Below are positions 27,051 through 39,412 of a stretch of 64,000 nucleotides of DNA, piece after piece. Location of the stretch: NCBI RefSeq assembly GCF_024502345.1, contig NZ_JALDNN010000003.1; one strand, written 5' to 3'. Every line of letters begins with the position of its first letter. Position 1 is the stretch's first letter. The DNA comes from Escherichia coli (GTDB taxonomy: Bacteria; Pseudomonadota; Gammaproteobacteria; Enterobacterales; Enterobacteriaceae). The position numbers were made by a program, and so were the translations under genes. The notes beneath the pieces are model-generated. The model was not told the origin of the DNA and searched no databases. It saw nothing but the letters and a program-made list of their open reading frames with translations.

Positions 27051-27082
27051 CAGCCAGGCATGCCCGGATGGATTACCGGGCT

Positions 27083-28486
27083 TTAAATCGGTTTCTTCCC
27101 AAATATCTCTTCAGAGCGTGACTGAAGTTTCACCAGGGCATTGAACATATCGTCCTGATCCAGGGAACGCTGGGATTTCTTCGTCGTGGGAGCTTTACGC
27201 CTGCGAGAAGGGCCGTCTCCGGATGGTACGGATTGCGACCGGTTATTATCCCGCTCGGCCTGGACCAGCTGCGCCATTTCCAGGGCCCGCCCCAGACGTT
27301 TGTTATCCACAATGGCCCCCTGATCGATTTCAGAAAGCTTGTCATAGGTGGAGTAGGGAAGTGATACGCCATTAAGCCGGAGCTCTTTATGTCCATCCGG
27401 GTAATGCCAGACATCGATGTATTTACCAATCGCCCGACGACTGAATTCGCTGTCTTCAATCAGATAAAGGACTTTGTCGTATTGCACTGTGAGTGATTTC
27501 GACACTTTACGAGCTTCACGCCAGTTAAATACCATATCAAGATCGTCATCGACATCCAGTTCCCGATGAACATCAAACTCCTGGCGAGGCGCTTTTGCGA
27601 AACGACGGTTGTAATCGTTCATGAACTCTTCGGCAAATGCGTTCGCAGCTTCCATGGAACTGATGCCCTGGAGCCTGAGCTCCTTGACCAGTCGGTCCTG
27701 AAGCGTCAGGTGCGCCCGTTCAACGCGGCCTTTGGCAGCACTGGTTTCTGCACAAATGGTCTGAATGTTCAGTTCATGCATCGCACGGCCAAACTGGGTA
27801 TCGCCGTCGCCGCCGGTTGCATTTTTATTGTTGATCCTGAATACGCTGGCTTTGTCGCTGTACAGCGCAAGCGGTTTGCCATGTTTTTCAATATAGCCCC
27901 GGGTCGCTTCAAAATAGGTGAAAGTAGACTCAGATTTCACGAAAAGAAGCTGCATTAAACGACTGGTTGCGTCATCAACGTAAACCAGTGCCGTACACTT
28001 AGGTCCCCGATTTTCAAACCAGTGGTGGTCGCAGCCGTCGATTTGTATGAGTTCACCGGCACAGGCACGGCGGTAACGAGGTTGCTGAATTTTTGGCGCA
28101 CGTTGCTTACGTGGGACCCACAGACTGGCCTGAGTCATCAGCTTACGGACGGTTTCTTTGGAAAGATGAACACCGTGCACCTCAGACAGTTTTTCACAGG
28201 CCAGCGTCGGACCGAAATCGTTATAGCGTTCGCGAATAATGTTCAGCGCGTATGCGGCCAGTCCCTGAGGCAACTGGTTGTTACTGGATTTACCACGACG
28301 GCGGCTGGTCATGCCAATCGGACCATCTTCACGATAACGCGCAAGCAGACGACGGCACTGACGGTCGGAGATACCAAGCCGCTGAGCTGCCATTTGTGTT
28401 GTCAGACGCCGGTCGATGACATCCTGAATGATTTTGAGTCGGTTAACTTCATCCAATGTGAAAAACTCCGCTGCGAGAGCCGTCAT
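27083..28486 (-). CDS. DDE transposase (integrase-core type, ISNCY/IS1202-like; family tentative)
   Basis: 467 aa: N-terminal HTH (LGISDRQCRRLL), DDE core (IQIDGCDHHWF...VYVDDATSRL...ETSAAKGRVERAHLTLQDRL). Confidence 0.8.
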   Translation of the reverse strand: MTALAAEFFTLDEVNRLKIIQDVIDRRLTTQMAAQRLGISDRQCRRLLARYREDGPIGMTSRRRGKSSNNQLPQGLAAYALNIIRERYNDFGPTLACEKLSEVHGVHLSKETVRKLMTQASLWVPRKQRAPKIQQPRYRRACAGELIQIDGCDHHWFENRGPKCTALVYVDDATSRLMQLLFVKSESTFTYFEATRGYIEKHGKPLALYSDKASVFRINNKNATGGDGDTQFGRAMHELNIQTICAETSAAKGRVERAHLTLQDRLVKELRLQGISSMEAANAFAEEFMNDYNRRFAKAPRQEFDVHRELDVDDDLDMVFNWREARKVSKSLTVQYDKVLYLIEDSEFSRRAIGKYIDVWHYPDGHKELRLNGVSLPYSTYDKLSEIDQGAIVDNKRLGRALEMAQLVQAERDNNRSQSVPSGDGPSRRRKAPTTKKSQRSLDQDDMFNALVKLQSRSEEIFGKKPI

Positions 28487-28780
28487 GGTAATCCTTACTT
28501 GATTATACACGCCGGACATCTTAACTTAGCCATTATCGGACATTACAACTTTGCTACTACAGACTTTGTCAAAGCAAGTTTAAAATGTCACCTCTTTGTG
28601 CAAGATAGAAAGGGCACTTTCAGCCTATGTAATCATATTAATGTGACTGCTGCGTTATCCCACTCAACCAATTAATAAAGCAAAAGTTAAATATGAAAGA
28701 CTGGAATAAAAATATAACGAAAACATCTTAATATGGAAATATCTGTGTCAACGGGATCTTTAGTTATTGAATATCTGGTT

Positions 28781-29587
28781 CTAAATAGGTTCTACATTCA
28801 ACGGGAAGGGAAACCAAATATCTATATGTTTTTTATAAATACCATTACGTGGCAAACAACAATCTGCATATTTTTTTAAAGAATCTCCACATGGACAAAT
28901 ATTTTCTGGCGATAATACTCCATCATGTTCTTTCGCCTTAAATCTCCAGGTCGTAATATTGAAAATTTGATGTGGGGATTGTATGTATTTGACAACACTA
29001 ATTAAAGTTGAATAGTTATAATGATCACCATCATTGGAGAAAAAAACACTACATTTGTTAACGGGATTACTAACTATGTCATAAGTAATTAATTCAAAAT
29101 CGATCACTTCATCAAAGCAAAGAACTCCATTATAAAGTTTATTTTTAACATGACCACAATCATTAATAAAACTACGGGTTGTATTACATACTGAACATTT
29201 CACTTCTTTTATTATTTCACGAGAACTACCGAAGATTTTATATGGGAATAACGCCTGCCAATTACATACCATTCTCGCTAAGAAGTTAACACCATAGAAA
29301 TTAACCTCAGGCAGAAACTCATTATTTTCTTTAATATGTATTAAATCTATTTCTATCCTTTCAAGTTCTACCCATGCTTCATAAAAATCACCTCTTGTAA
29401 GTAAATTAATGACTTGAATATATTTTAAATGGGCTAGTAAAATTGTTTTGTATAAAAACAATCTGTTTGATTCATTATTCAAGCTCAAGGATTGAGCTTT
29501 TTTTAACTCAGCATTAAGATAATCAAGAATAGCACTATCTTCTTGAGTAATACACATCCAACGCTTTAACTTTTCGTGAATATTCAT
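28781..29587 (-). CDS. candidate defence operon gene D: SEC-C / zinc-finger protein (268 aa)
   Basis: C-terminal CPCGDSLKKYADCC (SEC-C-like metal-binding motif) plus CSVCN...CGH; AT-rich. Confidence 0.6.
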   Translation of the reverse strand: MNIHEKLKRWMCITQEDSAILDYLNAELKKAQSLSLNNESNRLFLYKTILLAHLKYIQVINLLTRGDFYEAWVELERIEIDLIHIKENNEFLPEVNFYGVNFLARMVCNWQALFPYKIFGSSREIIKEVKCSVCNTTRSFINDCGHVKNKLYNGVLCFDEVIDFELITYDIVSNPVNKCSVFFSNDGDHYNYSTLISVVKYIQSPHQIFNITTWRFKAKEHDGVLSPENICPCGDSLKKYADCCLPRNGIYKKHIDIWFPFPLNVEPI

Positions 29588-29604
29588 AATATCTATATAG
29601 ATTT

Positions 29605-30051
29605 TTATTTGATTTTGTTAATTACTTTTAAAACATCGTCTACTTTTCCAGAAACAGTGTATTTCACATGTTTTCCTGATTTATTTTTTTTAATTATAGA
29701 GACTTTAACGTCTATATCTCTAGTTCCAAAGTTATCAATTTTTTTCTGAATATAATTTGAAACAAGATTTACTAAAAAAGGTATCATTACTGATGTGGCA
29801 AAGAAAGTGCCTAACGCTAACGTTATACTGTTTAATTGCAGGTACGAAACACCATTAGAATCTCCGTACACTTTAACATTAGAATGTGATTGCTTGGTGA
29901 ACTGGAAAAAATCCAGTGCATTACCTCCAGTAATTTTTGAACTATCAAAAACGATCGCAATCTCATCATCTTGAGGTTCATATGAAGAAATGATTTTTAC
30001 CTCTTCATCTTCATCACTCATTTCACTCAAAGTAATGGGGTTCATTCTCAA
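29605..30051 (-). CDS. candidate defence operon gene C: small single-TM protein (148 aa)
   Basis: Acidic N-terminus, hydrophobic segment ITLALGTFFATSVMIPFLVNLV, basic C-terminus; 17 bp upstream of gene D. Confidence 0.5.
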   Translation of the reverse strand: MRMNPITLSEMSDEDEEVKIISSYEPQDDEIAIVFDSSKITGGNALDFFQFTKQSHSNVKVYGDSNGVSYLQLNSITLALGTFFATSVMIPFLVNLVSNYIQKKIDNFGTRDIDVKVSIIKKNKSGKHVKYTVSGKVDDVLKVINKIK

Positions 30052-30197
30052 CTCCTTGTTTTATATTTTTACATTCAAATTTTACTATACGACTGGTTAA
30101 TTGCTCCTGTCCAACACACACCAGAGTTCATATGCTTAGCATACAAGGGACCAATGCCAGTAGCGACAGGCTAGTGTGTCAAAAAACCACATGAAGA

Positions 30198-31559
30198 TCA
30201 ATCTCCTGCGGAAAATTTGGCCGCAATTAGTTTCATTGTCCTTTCCATGCCTTGATAAACTGTCGCATCTGTAATGTTTAACCTTGCGAGTTCCTTAAGT
30301 ATTCTAGCTTTGTTTCTGATCACTATTTTTTCTACTTTAAACTCTTGCATAGCATCATCAGGGTTTGAAACTAAATCGGGATAAACAGCATTATTCCCAA
30401 ATAATAAGAATGCACCTGACTGTGATGACATCCTTTCATTATTATTTCTTCCTTTAACGAAAATTAACCTTTCCAAATCTGATGGTATAATTACATCTTT
30501 AAAATAAGGTTTTTCATCTTTAATGTAATGTATGAGTTTTTGACAAGCTTCAGTTTTATTGAAAGCCTCCTTGTCCATTTTACAATCCAGCTGATCTTTC
30601 AGTGTTTGACTTAGCATTGATATATTTGATATGCAACTTACTGTATCAGAGTCAAAGAATTTTATACGATCCCTTTTTGTTTTGAAAATAATAACATGTC
30701 CATCAACCTCATTTGTATTTTCATTATTACTAATGTCGCAACAAGCGAAATACAGAGCGATTAGTGGATTTGATGTTATATCCAACAAACGAGTTGGTAG
30801 TCCGTAGTGTTGCATCCTTACTAACTTGTCTAGCATTGTTTTATCATCAACAAACTCAGTTGGCCTTGCTGTTAGGGCTTCACGGACTAAATTTGATTCA
30901 CTGTGCAAATGCTTGAAGTTACCTTTTTTGTTTTTCCTGAAAACTGATGGAGCCAACTCGTAAGATACATCAGAATGTCCACGATAAAATATTTCTGCAT
31001 CTTCTTCATGATCTTGTTCTAAAACACGCGCCATGAAACTTTGAACATTATCTATTATTGGGTAGTTATCAACTTCATCAGGAAGTGCTTCAGTAGGAGG
31101 AAGTGGTGTACTTCTTGTCGTTATATTTAGAAGTGCTAATGTTTGATTTAAATCACGTGCTTTTATTCCCCAGTGAGTCCGTTTCAGCCCATATGCACCT
31201 AATTCTAAAGCTGTTTGATATAACTCTTTGTTTATCACTACGACATCATCTTGTGAGTGAGTGATTCTGAAATCAAACTCAACATTTTTGTTAACTGTTC
31301 GTAGATTTGAAATTACACCAAGTCGCAAAGTAATGTATTCAACATTGTCTCGGGAATAAAGTTCTGACATAAAAAGCGTAGGTAATTTCTCAATATAAGA
31401 TAATGCTTTATCATTCAAAGGCGTTAACTTCAACCGGATGTCATCAGAGGTGCCTTCTAACATACGTGATATAGGAAAATCACAACTCCCACTAACCCGT
31501 TCATACATGGGCCAATGTTCAAAATAGTCAGGTTCTCCGCCCATAATTAGATTAAACAT
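30198..31559 (-). CDS. candidate defence operon gene B: FRG-domain protein (453 aa)
   Basis: FRG-domain signature block IFYRGHSD...LAPSVFR...RMQHYGLPTRLLDITSNPLIALYFAC...SSQSGAFLLFG preceded by about 190-aa unknown N-domain. Confidence 0.7.
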   Translation of the reverse strand: MFNLIMGGEPDYFEHWPMYERVSGSCDFPISRMLEGTSDDIRLKLTPLNDKALSYIEKLPTLFMSELYSRDNVEYITLRLGVISNLRTVNKNVEFDFRITHSQDDVVVINKELYQTALELGAYGLKRTHWGIKARDLNQTLALLNITTRSTPLPPTEALPDEVDNYPIIDNVQSFMARVLEQDHEEDAEIFYRGHSDVSYELAPSVFRKNKKGNFKHLHSESNLVREALTARPTEFVDDKTMLDKLVRMQHYGLPTRLLDITSNPLIALYFACCDISNNENTNEVDGHVIIFKTKRDRIKFFDSDTVSCISNISMLSQTLKDQLDCKMDKEAFNKTEACQKLIHYIKDEKPYFKDVIIPSDLERLIFVKGRNNNERMSSQSGAFLLFGNNAVYPDLVSNPDDAMQEFKVEKIVIRNKARILKELARLNITDATVYQGMERTMKLIAAKFSAGD

Positions 31560-31572
31560 TAAAACTAAATCC

Positions 31573-32376
31573 TTATATTTTACTTAATGAATTATTTACA
31601 ATCCAATCAATTGCGCCAGAGGTGCGAATCCAAGGCTTTATATTATGATTCACATAATAAATGGCTTCATCCATTCCACCTAACGTGATATATCCACTGT
31701 TAGACTTGATCTGTAATCTGCACTTCGATAACAAGCCGGGGATGTGTCTATTAGAATCAATCGCAGCTTTAGCGATATCATCGGCATCCGGGGATGACTG
31801 TCGGTAGGCGAGTAGGGCGCGTGTATACTGAAAAAACGAACGCATATCCCCAGGATAATCGTCCAGTAGCAAGGCCAGATCATCCACCATTTCAAGCTCA
31901 AGGTAATAGTTCGCTAATAAATGACGAATCCCCTGGTTATCGTTCGGGTTGAGCTTCAGCATTTCGCGGCTATGAGCCATAGCCGGATAAAAATTACCAG
32001 ACTCCCATAAGGCCTCAGCCAAAGCTGCTTTTGCTCTCATATATGGACGTGTTTCGACAAATCCCCAGAAACGTCCTGCGAACTCCTGAAAATCCTCGCC
32101 AAGTGCAATGCTGGCTGCGTACAAAGCAGTCTCCAGCTTCCCGATTTTTGACTCAGGAGGTTCTTGAGATATCTCGCAGTAGAATGAGTATGCGTCAGCA
32201 CAGAGCGGGGATTTCTTGATAGCTTTTCTGATGAGTTTCAGCACAACTTCCAGGTCATCATTTTCCCAGGCATCGAACATGAACTCCTGAGCCGCAACCA
32301 GATCTAGATGTAATTGCTCAGAGCTGACAGCAGTTTTATACAAATCAACGCGCTTTGTAGTCGGGAATTTAATCAT
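31573..32376 (-). CDS. candidate defence operon gene A: helical-repeat (TPR-like) protein (267 aa)
   Basis: Alpha-helical repeat character (AMAHSREMLKLNPNDNQGIRHLLANYYLELEMVDD); 13 bp upstream of gene B. Confidence 0.55.
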   Translation of the reverse strand: MIKFPTTKRVDLYKTAVSSEQLHLDLVAAQEFMFDAWENDDLEVVLKLIRKAIKKSPLCADAYSFYCEISQEPPESKIGKLETALYAASIALGEDFQEFAGRFWGFVETRPYMRAKAALAEALWESGNFYPAMAHSREMLKLNPNDNQGIRHLLANYYLELEMVDDLALLLDDYPGDMRSFFQYTRALLAYRQSSPDADDIAKAAIDSNRHIPGLLSKCRLQIKSNSGYITLGGMDEAIYYVNHNIKPWIRTSGAIDWIVNNSLSKI

Positions 32377-32434
32377 CTCAAGTATCCTTTTGGGGACTCA
32401 CTGTTCCGGTACTTTGCAGCACTGATGGTCGATT

Positions 32435-33793
32435 CTATCGCTTTGAACTTGCCACAAACAAGCTCGGGTCTGCCAGAACGGGATTGATAGCCCGGAGCTG
32501 TTCCTGGATGCGCACCTGAGCCTTACGGCTGGGCGATTTTTTGCTTCGTTCCCGTTTGCCTTCGCTTTCCCGCTCATCCTGTTTTACCTGAGCCAGTCGG
32601 AGTACAGTCCCGAGACGTTTGTTATCAACAATCTGCCCCTGGTCGACACAGGCCAGCTTATCAAATGCCTGGCACTTAAGGCTCCGGTGCCCATAGAGGA
32701 AGGCGAGGGTGCCATCGGGATAATCCAGTACTTTAATTTTTTCACCGGCAAGACGGCTATTTTCTTCTGTGGTGTCCATGAGATAAAGGATCTTATCGTA
32801 CTGGAAGGTCAGTGATTTCGACACGGTACGAACATCATGCCAGGCAAAGATGTCTCTTAATTCATCGGGGCTTTCCTGCACCGGACGATGCAAATCTTTG
32901 GGGAACTTAGCCGGTCGTGAAAACCGGCTGTTAAAGTCAGCGATGAAAGTGGCAAGCCAGGCATTTGCGGCCTCAATGCCGGTTATACCTTCCAGACGCA
33001 TTTCTTTGATCAGCCGATCCTGAAGTGTCTGATTCGCACGTTCCACGCGGCCTTTAGCTTCAGAGCTGTTGGCACAAATAAGCTCGATTGCCAGGTCATA
33101 AAGCACACGTCCGAACTGGGTAACGGTGGTATTGCGTTTCTCCGGACCACTGACGCGAAATATTGCGTGTTTGTCACTGTACAGCGATACCGGCTTCCCA
33201 TGCTGCTCGATGTATTCCCGGGTTGCCAGCATGTAGTCAAAGGCTGTTTCTGACTCGCTGAACCGCAAATGCATCAGACGCCCGGTGGCATCATCGATAA
33301 AGACCAGCAGGCAGCATTTTGGCGCACGGCCTTCAAACCAGTCATGGTGGGAGCCGTCGATCTGGATAAGTTCACCCAGACAATCACGCCGATGTCGGGG
33401 TTGATAAACCCGTGACTTACGGCGAGCATGCGGGACCCAGAGTCCGTCAGACGTCATCCAGTTGCGGACGGTCTCGATTGAAAGCCGGATATTATGGCGC
33501 TCTCTGAGTTTTTCTGCGGCCAGTGTGGGCCCAAAGTCACTGTAGTTTTCACGTATCAGCGTGAGTACTCGTAGTTTGAGAGATTCGGTCAACCGGCGGT
33601 TGCTGGGCTGGCCGCGTTTGCGGCTGACAAGTCCTTCAGCACCAGAAACTCGGTAACGATTGATAAGTCGTTGCGCCTGACGTTCTGAAATGCCAAGCTG
33701 TGATGCTGCATCACGACGGCGTAGACGCTTTTCACAAACTGCCTGTATCACCGGTAGGCGGTGGATCTCTTTATCTGACATGGTCACCAACAT
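32435..33793 (-). CDS. DDE transposase (integrase-core type, ISNCY/IS1202-like; family tentative)
   Basis: 452 aa; same architecture as 27083-28486 protein but clearly a different sequence (LGISERQAQRLI...IQIDGSHHDWF...). Confidence 0.8.
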   Translation of the reverse strand: MLVTMSDKEIHRLPVIQAVCEKRLRRRDAASQLGISERQAQRLINRYRVSGAEGLVSRKRGQPSNRRLTESLKLRVLTLIRENYSDFGPTLAAEKLRERHNIRLSIETVRNWMTSDGLWVPHARRKSRVYQPRHRRDCLGELIQIDGSHHDWFEGRAPKCCLLVFIDDATGRLMHLRFSESETAFDYMLATREYIEQHGKPVSLYSDKHAIFRVSGPEKRNTTVTQFGRVLYDLAIELICANSSEAKGRVERANQTLQDRLIKEMRLEGITGIEAANAWLATFIADFNSRFSRPAKFPKDLHRPVQESPDELRDIFAWHDVRTVSKSLTFQYDKILYLMDTTEENSRLAGEKIKVLDYPDGTLAFLYGHRSLKCQAFDKLACVDQGQIVDNKRLGTVLRLAQVKQDERESEGKRERSKKSPSRKAQVRIQEQLRAINPVLADPSLFVASSKR

Positions 33794-34053
33794 GCGTTGA
33801 GTCCCTTAGAATTGCATTCAGTTTAGCTTACTCTAAGGTGACGTTTCTATCTGGATAAAAAGTGACATTACTAAATGGTTCTAACAATCTTGGTGCGCAT
33901 AACAAAGATTATGTTAAATATGGTGGGTTTGCTCTTAAGTTCATGAGTCCCTCTCTTTCAGGAACTTACCGATGAATCAGTCAGTTGCCAAAGTTTAGTT
34001 GTGGACTTACGATGACTTCATAACACAAAAATTACGGGGCATCCGCTAAGTTC

Positions 34054-35577
34054 ATGGCATATACCATCTTACATTTATCGAGGAACAACCAGAGAACTCA
34101 TCTCATAGTTGATGATGTGACTACCCTACCGGTCATGTTCGCCACAATTTATGGAATGAATGAACTGAGCAAGAAAAGCCTAGGGACTCAAGAAAACATT
34201 TTGTGTTCGCTGCGTTTCTTTTACGTCTATTACTATAAGAAGCATAAACAAACATTTGACTACGATTTCTATCGGTCTGGCTACAATATCTCCTGTTTTA
34301 TCAGGGAGCTTGATGGCTTCTTTACTTATCTGCTCGGGAAGCAGCACCTGAGTGACGAGACCGACATAATCTCTAACGGGTTTTTACATTCGGCACTCTC
34401 CAGAACCAACAAGTCCACCTATGGTAACCACGTCAGAAACGTTGGCCGATTCCTTAAGTATCTCAACTATAGATATATGAATCTGGCATACCAAGATATG
34501 TCACCTACTGAAGCTCACCAGATTAACCAGGCGAACCATAGAGATCTCGCTGCCAGAATTAAGGTCTTCAATAGAGTTGAAGTATCCAGGAACGAACCAG
34601 CTCACCGATACAAAAGTATCACCAGCCAGCAAAGTATCGAACTAACGAACATGTTAATCCCCTCCACTCCTGAATTTTCAGATATCGAGACCGGCGAACT
34701 ATTCACGGCCGTGGTTAATCCCCAAAACCCATTCGATTCAGGATTTCAACAATACCGTAACTACCTTATTCACCGGTTAATGTTTAACTATGGCTTACGT
34801 GTTGGTGAAGTTCAATTGTTGATGAAGGATTGCGTGGGGCCAACCCTTCCAGACTCACGAGGTAACATTCGTTTCATCCTGATTGTACAAAATCTACCAG
34901 ATGATGTAGTTGACCCAAGGAAACAACAACCTTCACTCAAGACTGAGCATTCACAGCGACAAATCGAACTAACCGAAGATGACTTCATTATGTTTACCAT
35001 TTATATGGAGCAATATCGGTCCCCATTATTTGAAGAGAAAAAAATTGTTGACCATGAGTTTGTTTTTATTAAAGGCTCAGGTAGGTTAACTCCATTAACT
35101 TACGATGCAATTCGAACATTTTATAAGGAAAAAATTGATCCGGCATTCATTGCCCTATTCCCTCATTATCGTACGAAAAGTAATAAAAATATTAATAATA
35201 TGGTTAATATAACACCACACGTTGGGCGGCATACTTGGGCTAATATCACTCTTGAGTTTATTTACAATAGTCTCCTGAGTGAATCACTAATACTGGCGCA
35301 AGACTATGGTATTCGAGCAAGGATGAATGGAGTACTTGAACCAGCTATTGAACAACTTCGTGCTTTAGGCGGCTGGTCACTGACCAGTAAAGTTCCATTA
35401 AGATATGCCAAGCGGTTTATTGAAGTGGTGAGTAACCAGAGCAACTATAAGCGTACGAAACATTCAGATATGCATTTAGCTTCCCCAGAAACAAACATTT
35501 CGCAAAGAAAAACCTCCAACTTGCTAGAAGATAATGTTTATGACGAAGACTTCACATTCAAAGATCTATTCAACTGA
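34054..35577 (+). CDS. tyrosine recombinase (phage-integrase family), trio gene 1
   Basis: C-terminal catalytic block HVGRHTWANITL...LGGWS...RYA (R..H..R..Y pattern); AT-rich. Confidence 0.7.
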   Translation: MAYTILHLSRNNQRTHLIVDDVTTLPVMFATIYGMNELSKKSLGTQENILCSLRFFYVYYYKKHKQTFDYDFYRSGYNISCFIRELDGFFTYLLGKQHLSDETDIISNGFLHSALSRTNKSTYGNHVRNVGRFLKYLNYRYMNLAYQDMSPTEAHQINQANHRDLAARIKVFNRVEVSRNEPAHRYKSITSQQSIELTNMLIPSTPEFSDIETGELFTAVVNPQNPFDSGFQQYRNYLIHRLMFNYGLRVGEVQLLMKDCVGPTLPDSRGNIRFILIVQNLPDDVVDPRKQQPSLKTEHSQRQIELTEDDFIMFTIYMEQYRSPLFEEKKIVDHEFVFIKGSGRLTPLTYDAIRTFYKEKIDPAFIALFPHYRTKSNKNINNMVNITPHVGRHTWANITLEFIYNSLLSESLILAQDYGIRARMNGVLEPAIEQLRALGGWSLTSKVPLRYAKRFIEVVSNQSNYKRTKHSDMHLASPETNISQRKTSNLLEDNVYDEDFTFKDLFN

Positions 35578-37210
35578 GAGCGGTATCACCGGGGGTGGTT
35601 TTTTTAAAACCCATCCCCTTCACTTTACAAAAGAACAGCTTGAATGGATTGAAAATATTCAGCTCCCTAAACGATTGTTTTTAATAAGTGCAACAGAATT
35701 TGATGACCGATATTTATATCTACATGATGATTGGCGTTACAGATTCTCAGGTAATAATTTGGCTATATTATTCTCTACTGGTAAATACTTTTGTGATTTA
35801 TCACCAGTTTCACTCAAGCTCTTGAAATACTTAACGATCGCGTACATTAATGAGAACTCGGCAAGTGTTGCTGATAAATTTGCTCAGTTTGTCGCAACAA
35901 CTTTCAAACAAATTGAGGTTATCACTCGCGAAAGCCTTATTGAAAAAATGCAAATGCTAGTTGCGAAGACTGAGCGAAATCACTCAGACAGCAGTCAGTT
36001 CTATTACACCCTCTATGCATTACGAAAACTTGATCGTAATGGATTCTTCGAAAGTAAGGATGACAGTGATGAGCTGGAAGATCTATTGCTGGAAGTGCCA
36101 CGCCCTAGGAACAATAACTGGGCTCGCTACCAAAACCTAGACCTCGTTATACCAGAAGAAGTATGCCTAATGATAGAAAATGGCATTCAACGTTGGGCAT
36201 CTAAGCTATGTCCAAAAATTGATGTTGAAGAAAATAAAAACATTCATCTGGAAACTGTAAGGAAAACCATTAAAATTGATACATTACGGGACTGCATTAT
36301 TATTGGCATAGTTTATTACATTGGGGCCAGACCTGTACAGATCGGTAAACTTTCCGGAGGCGATTTTATCGTTGATACCGAGAATAAGTACGGGATGCGT
36401 TATTCAGTACTTGTGCCATATGCCAAAAAGTCAAAACTAACTATCGATCGAGTTCGAGTTGCAATTCCGGAAGAACTTGGAAAGTTAATCTTACTGTATA
36501 AGTACCTAGTTGGAATTGGTGATACCGACCCGATGTTTTCCATCATAGTATCTTCAATGAAGATGGTGGAAGCGTCATTAAAGAAAATGCTTTTCAGATT
36601 TTCACCACAAGAGATTCAGGAGGCAGTAAAAAACGATGATTATCAACTACCTGTATATACCGCAAGCCTCTTTCGTCACAACGTTGGTCACTCAATGGCA
36701 ATGAGTGGTGCCAGTGCTCCTGAGATAGCTTATATATTGGGACAATCCTCTTATGTTGTTGCAGATCGATACATTGCAGCCACCCCTGAGCTGGCTGATA
36801 TTCGTGAGGCAGCTTTGGGTCGCAACCCTGTGTTTAAGAACATGATGGCACTCATGTTGACTGGGAATTTAGTTCACAGCAGCGAATGGGAAGGTCGCAA
36901 TGTTGCAGGGTCAATTGGTGGGCAACTTCATTACCATCTCGGTGGATGTAATTATGAAGAAGACATTTGCCCCTTTGCACAGGGTCGTGGATGTTACGGT
37001 TGCCTGTATTTCAAACCATTTATAGATGGAAACCACAAAAAAGTATTTCTTTCGCTGAATGATGAAATCCAAAATGTTCGTGATGTTGCCGATGATGCTG
37101 GCATTTTAAATCATCCACTTCTCAAGGAATTAGTGCGGCGGAAAGAGCATGTAAATCAGGTTATGGCTCGCATTGAAATGGCAAAGGCCGGAGGACTATT
37201 TAATCGATGA
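35534..37210 (+). CDS. tyrosine recombinase, trio gene 2
   Basis: LFRHNVGHSMAMSGASAPEIAYILGQSSYVVADRYIA catalytic block; overlaps gene 1 by 44 nt and gene 3 by 4 nt (ATGA). Confidence 0.7.
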   Translation: MFMTKTSHSKIYSTESGITGGGFFKTHPLHFTKEQLEWIENIQLPKRLFLISATEFDDRYLYLHDDWRYRFSGNNLAILFSTGKYFCDLSPVSLKLLKYLTIAYINENSASVADKFAQFVATTFKQIEVITRESLIEKMQMLVAKTERNHSDSSQFYYTLYALRKLDRNGFFESKDDSDELEDLLLEVPRPRNNNWARYQNLDLVIPEEVCLMIENGIQRWASKLCPKIDVEENKNIHLETVRKTIKIDTLRDCIIIGIVYYIGARPVQIGKLSGGDFIVDTENKYGMRYSVLVPYAKKSKLTIDRVRVAIPEELGKLILLYKYLVGIGDTDPMFSIIVSSMKMVEASLKKMLFRFSPQEIQEAVKNDDYQLPVYTASLFRHNVGHSMAMSGASAPEIAYILGQSSYVVADRYIAATPELADIREAALGRNPVFKNMMALMLTGNLVHSSEWEGRNVAGSIGGQLHYHLGGCNYEEDICPFAQGRGCYGCLYFKPFIDGNHKKVFLSLNDEIQNVRDVADDAGILNHPLLKELVRRKEHVNQVMARIEMAKAGGLFNR

Positions 37211-38355
37211 CTACACAAATAACAATACGTAATAAACAGGCGGATAATCTTCTTATTTATATAGAGAAATATAAAGCAAAATTTGAAGAGCGTCTTGTTG
37301 CCTACAATGCTGTTGGACAACTGGAGTGGAATGCCGGTTCCTGGCGTTTTGGTGAGAAAGGTGTTGCATGGCTTAAAGAAACAAAAGATCGCGGCTTTAA
37401 GTGGGACGAAGTTTCTAGTCGTATTAAGGGGCTCTCACAAATGAATATTTCTTCGGAATTTCAGGATTTTATGCGAGCTTATCACATGCATCTGGTGTGT
37501 ATCATTGGCGGATTACCATCAGGTTCTACACTAGACAAACCATTACAGGTCATGAAGCGCTGGTATTGGGAAATGGTAAATAAAACAGGTCAAACGCATC
37601 CAATGTATCTGACTTCCGATATTATTCATGCAGCGATGGAGCGGCATCATGAGAATTCTGACAGTCCTGATAATGTCAGTGACTATTGCGATATTGCAGT
37701 AAAGGCCATTGCTTTACTACGTCAATATGATCTTTTCTTAGTTAATATTGAAGTCAAAAATAAGTATCCTTATCGAAATGGTTCTAACAGCACTAAAGAA
37801 AGGAAGAAAGCGCAAGAAGCCACCCCTGATCAAACTGATGATGAAAGACTCATATCAATCCGTGCATTTATGTGTGTTATTGAGTTGATCGCTTTAGCTG
37901 AGAATAGTTATCAGCGTATCTTTTACAATATGTTGTTACTCACAATTATTTGCGGTTTCCGTTTCCAGGAAATAATGTTGCTGAAAATGACTTCTTTGGT
38001 TAAGCGAGAAATTACGGATAAAGATAAACGTCAGCACGCAATAGATCAAGACTGGCCTACTTACAGGTTGGGTATTGAGTATCTTGGTGCAAAAAAGGCT
38101 GGATGGCGGATCCATTGGCTGGCGCCAAGCACTTATTCTGTCGTTGAGATGATTTATAAATCTGTTCGAGAATTGACCTCTGGGTTCCGTAAAACGATTC
38201 AGGGCTTCAGAGATTCTAATTTCACTAATATGCTCCCAGGTAAGATCGCTGATTTTCCTGATGAATGGATTGAGCAAAATTATCTTGAAGACATCATGTT
38301 TAGTGGTTCTGGTGGCTCCAGGAATGATCTTGGAAAGAGTATTCGGAATTCCATT
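37207..38355 (+). pseudogene. trio gene 3, 3'-truncated by IS903 (ORF-track stop at 38370 lies inside IS903 IR)
   Basis: Reading frame runs straight into IS903 terminal repeat; no native C-terminus or catalytic block present. Confidence 0.6.
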
Positions 38356-39412
38356 GGCTTTGTTGAATAAATCAGATTTCGGGTAAGTCTCCCCCGTAGC
38401 GGGTTGTGTTTTCAGGCAATACGCACGCTTTCAGGCATACCTGCTTTCGTCATTTTGTTCAGCGCTCGTACCAGGGCCATAGCCTCTGCAACCTGACCAT
38501 CGTAGTCACGCAGTGTCAGTGAACCCCCGAACAGCTGTTTTACCCGGTACATCGCCGTTTCCGCTATCGAGCGACGGTTGTAATCTGTTGTCCATTTCCA
38601 CCGCGCATTACTCCCGGTCATTCGCTGATTAGCCACTGCACGGTTACGGTCTGCATATTCACCGGGCCAGTAACCCGCACCTTTTCGGGGAGGGATAAGC
38701 GCGCTGATTTTCTTACGCCGCAGTTCATCGTGACATAGCCGGGTATCGTAAGCGCCATCGGCGGCGGCTGACCTGATTTTCCGGTGGGTTTGCCGGATTA
38801 ACCCGGGGAAGGCCTCTGAGTCCGTAACGTTGTTCAGCGACAGGTCAGCGCAGATGATTTCATGTGTTTTACTGTCAACGGCGAGATGCAGCTTACGCCA
38901 GATACGGCGGCGTTCCTGGCCATGCTTTTTGACTTTCCACTCGCCTTCACCGAAGACCTTCAGCCCGGTGGAATCAATTACCAGGTGTGCGATTTCACCC
39001 CGGGTGGGCGTTTTGAAACTGACATTAACCGACTTTGCCCGCCTGCTGACACAGCTGTAATCCGGGCAGCGTAGCGGAACGTTCATCAGAGAAAAAATGG
39101 AATCAATAAAGCCCTGCGCAGCGCGCAGGGTCAGCCTGAATACGCGTTTAATGACCAGCACAGTCGTGATGGCAAGGTCAGAATAGCGCTGAGGTCTGCC
39201 TCGTGAAGAAGGTGTTGCTGACTCATACCAGGCCTGAATAGCTTCATCATCCAGCCAGAAAGTTATGGAGCCACGGTTGATGAGGGCTTTATTGTAGGTG
39301 GGCCAGTTGGTGATTTTGAACTTTTGCTTTGCCACGGAACGGTCTGCGTTGTCGGGAAGATACGTGATCTGATCCTTCAACTCAGCAAAAGTTCGATTTA
39401 TTCAACAAAGCC
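38356..39412 (-). mobile_element. IS903-like element (IS5 family), 1057 bp
   Basis: 18-bp terminal IRs GGCTTTGTTGAATAAATC at both ends; no flanking 9-bp duplication (AATTCCATT vs GATTTTGGA). Confidence 0.9.
38412..39335 (-). CDS. IS903 transposase
   Basis: (V)AKQKFKITNWPTYNKALINRGSITFWLDDEAIQAWYES... about 307 aa; GTG start at 39335 (ORF track ATG at 39380). Confidence 0.9.
   Translation of the reverse strand: MAKQKFKITNWPTYNKALINRGSITFWLDDEAIQAWYESATPSSRGRPQRYSDLAITTVLVIKRVFRLTLRAAQGFIDSIFSLMNVPLRCPDYSCVSRRAKSVNVSFKTPTRGEIAHLVIDSTGLKVFGEGEWKVKKHGQERRRIWRKLHLAVDSKTHEIICADLSLNNVTDSEAFPGLIRQTHRKIRSAAADGAYDTRLCHDELRRKKISALIPPRKGAGYWPGEYADRNRAVANQRMTGSNARWKWTTDYNRRSIAETAMYRVKQLFGGSLTLRDYDGQVAEAMALVRALNKMTKAGMPESVRIA

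Follow-up and report, generated by a model that had tools for sequence, protein, structure and literature searches.

The DNA examined is a stretch of 64,000 nucleotides from Escherichia coli, hereafter "the window", to whose positions all coordinates refer unless another locus is named. Positions 28567-33886 form a single transposable unit of 5,320 bp, composed of a transposase gene followed by four passenger genes, indicated as A, B, C and D in order of transcription. The unit is the element called ISLad2, here correctly delimited: a "transporter" insertion sequence (IS) of the IS1202 family, belonging to the ISAjo2/ISAba32 subgroup, whose members target dif sites. Taken as a whole, it is very probably a dif-targeting carrier, loaded with a mosaic of independent candidate defence modules. 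Three things are new: the large, defence-laden dif-targeting IS carrier itself, a C-D gene pair not present in the catalogues, and the architecture of B, where a predicted PUA-like domain precedes an FRG domain. A first-pass annotation of the window had described A-D as one undescribed defence operon, placed between two transposase genes: what it observed is confirmed, while its interpretation is supported only in part.

The ends of the unit were defined by aligning four contexts: the window, the IncHI2A plasmid pCRENT-193_1 (L001), the chromosome of E. coli 0H15, where a copy lies beside hipA (L005), and an IncFII Klebsiella plasmid (L006), carrying a variant of the element with 88-93% amino acid identity. 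In all four, similarity begins at TGTTAGAACC (window 33886) and ends at CTTTGACA (window 28567). The two termini, TGTTAGAACCATTTAGTAATGTCACT and TGTCAAAGCAAGTTTAAAATGTCACC, when compared, behave as imperfect 26-bp inverted repeats, with 17 matches out of 26, the best found in the region. Matching 5-bp target duplications flank the copies in L001 (TAAGT/TAAGT, IncHI2), L005 (AATAT/AATAT, chromosome) and L006 (GATGT/GATGT, IncFII): they record three independent events, in each of which the 5,320-bp unit inserted as a whole. The same extent is found in a draft contig from Huaxiibacter chinensis (L029): with a length of exactly 5,320 bp and an identity of 99.98%, it has the same first and last bases as the unit. 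Such a contig is the signature expected for a repeat unit present in multiple copies.

The transposase reaches a score of 507 with the NF033594 model (cutoff 250; E=2.7e-152) and is named "ISNCY-like element ISLad2 family transposase" in RefSeq. The unit resembles the other members of the ISAjo2/ISAba32 subgroup (ISAjo2, tISKpn21, tISKpn65, ISLad2) in many respects: a single DDE transposase (NF033594), 400-500 amino acids long; imperfect terminal repeats of about 26 bp (24-26 bp in the subgroup), starting with TGT; a 5-bp duplication (5-6 bp in the subgroup); oriented insertion beside dif or pdif sites, 5 bp from the XerC arm, and tandem stacking. It differs in size and content: described members range from 1.3 to 2.5 kb and host at most one unannotated passenger, while the unit measures 5.3 kb and hosts four. 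The element is therefore classified as a large "transporter IS" variant.

Its placement is that of a dif-targeting element. The dif-like site next to the left end shows no mismatches to either 11-bp arm of E. coli dif, and is the sole such site in the window, where the number expected by chance is 0. All seven copies examined have a dif-like site beside them, with its XerC arm 5 bp from the left end, and their orientation is fixed; for the E. coli chromosomal copy, the target site matches chromosomal dif at 27 positions out of 28. The sequence of the window's dif-like site appears among the targets of ISKpn21/ISKpn65 (PMC10132070, Table 8); for the ISAjo2/ISAba32 subgroup, insertion 5 bp off the XerC side, tandem stacking and occasional passengers have been described (PMC10132070; bioRxiv 10.1101/2022.12.17.520857). 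On insertion, the element places its left end next to dif or to a dif-like site, 5 bp away from the XerC arm, and duplicates 5 bp; newcomers stack in tandem ahead of older elements at one site.

Two transposase genes had been reported to flank the block in the same orientation, and both were found again as ISNCY-type DDE transposases (open reading frames 32435-33793 and 27083-28519; NF033594, E=2.7e-152 and 3.8e-154). This arrangement, present in the window and in IncHI2 plasmids, could suggest a composite transposon, where two flanking ISNCY copies mobilise whatever stands between them. The two transposases, however, are 51% identical in amino acids, and the downstream IS is devoid of a right end. 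In addition, the chromosomal and IncFII copies, which do not feature the downstream IS, keep identical ends and matching 5-bp duplications, and the 5,320-bp contig leaves this IS out. A composite transposon is thus hardly credible, and the description of the block as bracketed by two transposases does not hold: the upstream gene is internal to the unit, while the downstream one belongs to a separate, 3'-truncated element, stacked at the same dif-like site.

This downstream IS has its own left repeat (28536-28561) and an intact transposase gene (27083-28519); a search for its right inverted repeat found none. Over 1,487 bp it is 90.8% identical in nucleotides to an element of a Raoultella plasmid (L038), which bears an anti-phage system that signals through cyclic oligonucleotides (CBASS). 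Similarity to this relative ends at about 27076, 7 nucleotides past the stop codon, abutting the end of arsH. No such IS is found beside the E. coli chromosomal copy of the unit. Tandem stacking of newcomers accounts for the presence, downstream of the unit, of a second, unrelated IS1202-family transposase. The localization of all features is reported in Table 1.

Table 1. Features of the ISLad2 unit and of its flanks in the 64,000-nucleotide window
Feature	Position	Strand	Description
dif-like XerC/XerD site, GGTGCGCATAA-CAAAGA-TTATGTTAAAT	33892-33919	+	Insertion target
5-bp spacer AAGAT	33887-33891	-	Between XerC arm and left inverted repeat, from the four-context alignment; position of the duplication in other copies
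Left inverted repeat (IRL), TGTTAGAACCATTTAGTAATGTCACT	33861-33886	-	Four-context conservation starts exactly here; coincides with first base of the Huaxiibacter contig
ISLad2 transposase	32435-33793	-	IS1202 family (formerly ISNCY); open reading frame of 452 aa (448 aa in RefSeq)
Gene A	31573-32376	-	267 aa; TPR/ST7-like helical-repeat protein, constant companion of the transposase
Gene B	30198-31559	-	453 aa; stand-alone FRG protein: N-terminal beta-rich domain and C-terminal FRG domain (putative ART superfamily)
B-C spacer	30052-30197	-	Joint between two cargo modules; shortened 3' relic of an ISLad2-like transposase and promoter-like site
Gene C	29605-30051	-	148 aa; small protein whose single hydrophobic helix is conserved; obligate partner of D, encoded upstream of it
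Gene D	28781-29587	-	268 aa; putative zinc protein with SEC-C-like motif: N-terminal helical domain and C-terminal beta/zinc domain
Right inverted repeat (IRR), GGTGACATTTTAAACTTGCTTTGACA	28567-28592	-	Four-context conservation stops exactly at 28567; coincides with last base of the Huaxiibacter contig
5-bp flank AAGTC	28562-28566	-	Differs from left flank AAGAT in this copy
Older, separate IS1202-family element	27076-28561	-	IRL TGTAGTAGCAAAGTTGTAATGTCCG and transposase of 467/478 aa; cut off just past the stop codon; outside the unit

A 3.9-kb region of the element is found, 99.9% identical, in more than 200 plasmids from Enterobacter, Klebsiella, Citrobacter, Salmonella and E. coli, mostly IncHI2A plasmids of about 300 kb, and occurs in E. 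coli chromosomes too. The enterobacterial element is also present, with 99.7% identity, in two contigs assigned to an Erysipelotrichia metagenome-assembled genome (L030, L031); binning contamination, rather than cross-phylum transfer, is the likely origin of these two occurrences.

As for the passengers, re-measurement reproduced the four co-directional open reading frames on the minus strand, separated by gaps of 13, 146 and 17 bp, as originally annotated. Each has many conserved homologues, and they are therefore considered as real genes. For C, a TTG start gives the 148-residue product, while the ATG at 30045 is favoured by an AAGGAG Shine-Dalgarno sequence, and gives a product of 146 residues, matching RefSeq. 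The AT-richness of the last three genes was borne out (GC fractions of 0.350 for B, 0.306 for C and 0.299 for D), compared with 0.525 and 0.515 for the two transposase genes and 0.53 for arsH; A is intermediate (0.445). The horizontal acquisition of the block, as previously proposed, is upheld. It is also true that no named defence system matches the gene combination: PADLOC (PADLOC-DB 2.0) detects B only, as the candidate PDC-S15, and none of A, C and D has a meaningful match in PADLOC, NCBIfam or PHROGs. Sequence searches of solved structures with B, D and A gave nothing useful. When the region was scanned for promoters and terminators, neither kind of site was more frequent than expected by chance; at most, a weak hint of a promoter before C is given by one such site, TGGACA-18-TATAGT, found in the B-C spacer (30113-30084).

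According to the first-pass annotation, the four genes would form one undescribed defence operon. In an integrated operon of this kind, A could provide a scaffold or a sensor, B the FRG effector, C an effector in the membrane and D a regulator with a zinc finger. The co-directional, closely spaced genes, the preservation of the whole block at 88-93% amino acid identity in a second lineage (L006) and the presence of a catalogued defence candidate, B, are all compatible with such an operon. Their distribution, however, is not: the four genes occur together solely within copies of this mobile element (amino acid identity of at least 88%), and co-localization in diverged genomes was not found beyond these near-identical copies. 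Elsewhere, B stands by itself, in no fewer than five independent contexts; C and D are paired, with neither A nor B, in 11 contexts; A stays by the transposase, even when the cargo consists of Thoeris or of other genes. Within the block itself, there is a step in GC content between A (0.445) and B-D (0.30-0.35), and a transposase relic parts B from C. A single four-gene system is, on these grounds, very improbable.

The relic is best seen in L006, where the B-C spacer encodes ...CVGQRLVVDNYKRLVTVLRLSQVKQDEQEKE, corresponding to transposase residues from about 380 to 423 (tblastn, 66.7% identity over 45 residues, E=3e-8). The window copy keeps both flanks of the relic, and has lost about 84 nucleotides. 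This remnant of a transposase 3' end in the spacer indicates that C-D came as cargo of a second, stacked IS1202-type element, which fused to the first one through an internal deletion.

Gene A appears to be linked to the transposase rather than to the remaining cargo. Previously described as a helical-repeat protein, it gives weak TPR matches when searched on its own (TPR_14, E=0.01), while many of its homologues carry precomputed TPR/ST7 Pfam matches. The transposase-plus-A segment is covered for 80% or more in 418 of the 430 matching plasmids, whatever cargo is found downstream; the B-C-D cargo is present in just 204-211 plasmids, and in the others different genes come after A. Among the 1,476 homologues of A, three distant ones (41-47% identity) were sampled, and all three directly follow Tn3-family transposase genes. 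This distribution, including the association with Tn3-family transposases, marks A as a gene associated with transposons rather than as part of a defence operon. According to published descriptions, other dif-targeting members of the IS1202 family, 1.3-1.7 kb in length, carry no A-like gene (PMC10132070): A is therefore not needed for targeting.

The Tn3-linked homologues of A (loci L020-L023) come from Sphingomonadales, Allomesorhizobium and a metagenome contig, while in Enterobacterales A comes after an IS1202-family transposase. An A-type gene thus directly follows the transposase in two unrelated transposon families.

The presence of an FRG domain in B was confirmed (PF08867, residues 189-279, E=1.5e-21). 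The protein also matches 14 PADLOC models of the PDC-S15 group, the best being PDLC04936 (E=1.7e-99; residues 167-450); its match to phrog_4962 is full-length. Full-length homologues are abundant, with more than 4,000 database matches, 43-66% identical over 100% of the length. The N-terminal domain, regarded in the first-pass annotation as unrecognised, is no peculiarity of this protein: about 165 residues long, it is constant across the family. Fold matches of PUA-like/YTH/EVE type suggest for this domain a PUA-like fold; these matches, reported with no residue positions, were placed in the N-terminal, beta-rich part on account of its size and secondary structure, and a Pfam scan of 64 family members gave no N-terminal EVE, ASCH or YTH match.

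Homologues of B, 44-66% identical, stand alone in a P2-like phage, in Tritos, which is lambdoid, and in PhiR11_1, where they are inserted in reverse orientation, with no relatives of A, C or D in their vicinity. Another homologue is located in the tail-region hotspot of a P2-like prophage, and one more in a Rhizobium island, where its neighbours are a methylase, a PLD nuclease and a UvrD helicase. Judging from this distribution in phages, prophage hotspots and the Rhizobium island, B would be an autonomous single-gene unit.

In P2-like prophages of Klebsiella and relatives (L024-L027, 3432-4829), the B homologue of the tail-region hotspot is preceded by a gene coding for 439-465 residues. No Pfam or PADLOC match was found for this gene, which may be a further uncharacterised gene of the hotspot.

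FRG has been placed in the ADP-ribosyltransferase (ART) superfamily, as a predicted NADase effector (PMC9503650), and, in the supplements of DefensePredictor, FRG proteins other than B are scored as predicted to be defence genes. The activity that we infer for B is the following: B would combine sensor and effector in one protein, with the PUA-like N-terminal domain sensing a nucleic-acid cue, possibly a modified base, and controlling the C-terminal FRG domain, of putative ADP-ribosyltransferase fold, which in turn would deplete NAD+ (nicotinamide adenine dinucleotide) or ADP-ribosylate a target. This PUA-like sensor and FRG/ART-type effector mechanism is proposed as a possibility, on balance rather doubtful; a role of B in defence, however exerted, is somewhat probable.

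B may be compared with two kinds of known proteins. It shares with the PADLOC candidate PDC-S15, and with FRG proteins (PF08867), both the sequence matches and the occurrence as a one-gene unit in hotspots of phages and defence islands. PDC-S15, however, is a prediction rather than a validated system, and the subfamily of B, about 450 residues long, features an N-terminal domain which lies outside the PDC-S15 and Pfam matches. PUA-like readers of modified bases (McrB N-domain, VcaM4I, PD-T4-3, EVE/YTH/ASCH proteins) resemble B by predicted fold only, with no support at the sequence level; their effector is a nuclease or a GTPase, while that of B is of FRG/ART type.

C and D behave as a two-gene module. 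The single hydrophobic segment reported for C was found at residues 76-94 (mean Kyte-Doolittle value of 1.99 over 19 residues), with the acidic N-terminal and basic C-terminal sides also recovered, as net charges of -8 before and +8 after the segment. For D, the SEC-C assignment is not significant when tested by Pfam (PF02810, E=1). The SEC-C-like motif itself, in contrast, is upheld by the alignment of 104 family members: CPC-x9-CC (C231, C233, C243, C244; consensus CPCxSGxxYxxCC) is invariant or nearly so. The same alignment reveals a second conserved motif of zinc type, C131-x2-C134...C144-x-H146, which the first-pass annotation had missed.

Eleven loci with D homologues were collected from Acinetobacter, Pseudoalteromonas, Proteus, Pseudomonas, a plasmid metagenome, four Bacteroidota and Calothrix, thus spanning Gammaproteobacteria, Bacteroidota and Cyanobacteria. 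Seven of them are independent of the training set of the hidden Markov model (E-values from 4e-25 to 5e-11); the locus search seeded with a 17-sequence alignment of D returned 9 loci. In all 11, an open reading frame of the C family, with one hydrophobic segment, is directly upstream of the D homologue; the two frames overlap in 10, and are often translationally coupled. Neither A nor B is present in any of these loci. On a larger scale, the pair is found in at least 536 representative clusters, from Proteobacteria, Bacteroidota, Cyanobacteria, Firmicutes and Spirochaetes.

Many of the genes found near distant C-D pairs are known from defence. HEC-06/DUF262, PDC-S20 and an AriA/OLD-like ATPase are among the neighbours; another neighbourhood features a SNF2 helicase of DpdE/ZorD type, together with viperin-like and SIR2-like genes. 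In Acinetobacter baumannii (L007, 7823-9019) the pair is convergent with a defence-type reverse transcriptase of class UG17. In Proteus, C-D belongs to a P2-like prophage, where it directly follows the gene for the CI repressor and precedes the one for the integrase. A position between repressor and integrase is typical of exclusion genes expressed by lysogens.

The anti-phage phenotype that we infer for the pair would be that of an autonomous, membrane-associated two-component exclusion module: D, a putative cytoplasmic zinc protein, would act with C, a predicted membrane protein with a single helix, and exclude phages, whether through a membrane-mediated abortive infection or through a block of their entry. 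The chances that C-D has a role in defence are considered even. Small membrane proteins with a cytoplasmic partner are known as exclusion modules from the immunity region of prophages, as in the case of RexAB in lambda and of the lactococcal Sie proteins, encoded between repressor and integrase. C-D shares with them the combination of a small hydrophobic protein and a soluble partner, here of about 270 residues, and, in the Proteus prophage, the slot between repressor and integrase. It differs because there is no kinship in sequence or fold, the gene for the membrane protein comes first, this protein has a single hydrophobic helix rather than several, and the partner is a putative zinc protein with a SEC-C-like motif. 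D was compared by architecture with Rugutis, an anti-phage protein from a lactococcal plasmid, for which a SEC-C motif is described (PMC11381338): this is a single protein of 359 residues, with the motif at the N-terminus, while D has 268 residues, carries its SEC-C-like motif near the C-terminus and is always partnered by C.

Recognised defence systems were found in the cargo of related elements. A sibling on the K. pneumoniae plasmid ptgc-02-mcr8 (L010, 7001-10927) is 3,927 bp long, has the same transposase-plus-A core, and is flanked at both ends by AATGC duplications. B-C-D are replaced, in its cargo slot, by a complete Thoeris system (ThsA-Macro, E=1.5e-122; ThsB-TIR, E=7.9e-74). A tandem array of IS1202-family elements, with a common AACATG junction, is found on the IncHI2A plasmid p208355-NR from Raoultella planticola (L038, 3423-11505). 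Here, the already mentioned relative of the window's downstream IS, with a transposase 90.8% identical in nucleotides, carries a type I CBASS (cyclase, E=5e-150; 4TM effector, E=1.6e-152), and is stacked against an ISLad2-like transposase-plus-A element, holding two uncharacterised genes, for 214 and 437 residues. An AbiJ-like gene is located just past the right end of this ISLad2-like element. A literature search for a link between IS1202 and defence cargo (Thoeris, CBASS) found no report.

A different view of the cargo is that it serves the element, or the replicon, instead of defending the cell: A would aid transposition or the choice of Xer/dif sites, C-D would be an addiction pair or a membrane/metal pair, and B an NAD-linked toxin, active in plasmid competition. 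The persistence of A next to the transposase in almost all plasmids, and the location of its relatives after Tn3-family transposases, fit this view, as do the outline of C-D, a small hydrophobic protein with a partner, and the prevalence of the element on large conjugative plasmids. Against it stand the dif-targeting IS1202 relatives, which do without A, the distant neighbours of C-D and B, mainly recognised anti-phage genes and prophage lysogeny slots, and the siblings, where bona fide Thoeris and CBASS occupy the equivalent slot. A cargo devoted to the element or to the replicon is thus regarded as unlikely. For B and for the C-D pair a role in defence is plausible; the cargo genes are uncharacterised, and probably defensive. 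A broader claim is that dif-targeting IS1202 elements of Enterobacterales are dedicated anti-phage vehicles, with a swappable slot after the transposase, which hosts Thoeris, CBASS, FRG, C-D or uncharacterised pairs, acquired when elements stacked at one dif site undergo fusion by deletion, and, jointly, that C-D is a previously unnamed anti-phage system: this falls slightly short of an even chance.

A number of observations weigh against a dif-targeting carrier of defence modules, as delimited here. The 5-bp flanks of the window copy are unequal (AAGAT on the left and AAGTC on the right, on the minus strand), unlike those of all other copies checked. The flanks of this copy have therefore been reshuffled, and by itself it gives no proof of transposition; a recombination between two copies, with the swapping of one flank, is likely, since strains exist which have both a plasmid and a chromosomal copy. 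For two transposase-plus-A copies (L009 and L011), no right end was detected within about 9 kb. Published tables list ISLad2 as 1,647 bp long, with a 4-bp duplication (PMC10132070), in disagreement with the boundaries found here (5,320 bp, 5-bp duplication). The published end would fall inside gene A; no inverted-repeat match is present at that distance, and the sole good match for a right end is at 28567. In a plasmid comparison (PMC6140695), a "four-gene region downstream of ISLad2" was treated as backbone, deleted elsewhere. As for the cargo, the membrane location of C is a prediction from hydropathy, a tblastn search of 50,697 GenBank phage records with D homologues gave no match, and no experimental report of a defence role for B, C or D was found in the literature, where searches on FRG and on SEC-C gave only predictions and Rugutis, of unrelated architecture.

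Just beyond the dif-like site, the window features two large tyrosine-recombinase genes and a third open reading frame (34054-38370); a similar trio is located just past chromosomal dif in E. coli 0H15 (L005, 17501-22798). The trio has no PADLOC match, and may be another dif-associated mobile element.

The descriptions of dif-targeting IS date only from 2022-23, and present them as small, with no more than a single anonymous passenger. The 5.3-kb carrier reported here, and the complete Thoeris and CBASS of its siblings, suggest that chromosomal dif and plasmid Xer sites receive immunity genes by a route so far unrecognised. Onward spread on multidrug-resistance plasmids of IncHI2 type would follow, the element being carried by over 200 sequenced plasmids from Enterobacter, Klebsiella, Citrobacter, Salmonella and E. 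coli. The delimitation of ISLad2 is corrected, and so are plasmid comparisons in which its cargo is treated as backbone. B, with its predicted PUA-like domain and its FRG domain, could offer a route to a first biochemical activity for FRG, and C-D represents a widespread two-gene module, of a SEC-C-like and a predicted membrane protein, without a catalogue entry. If the broader claim is true, immunity genes would be delivered to the one site that all chromosomes share with a large number of plasmids, among them the clinically dominant IncHI2.

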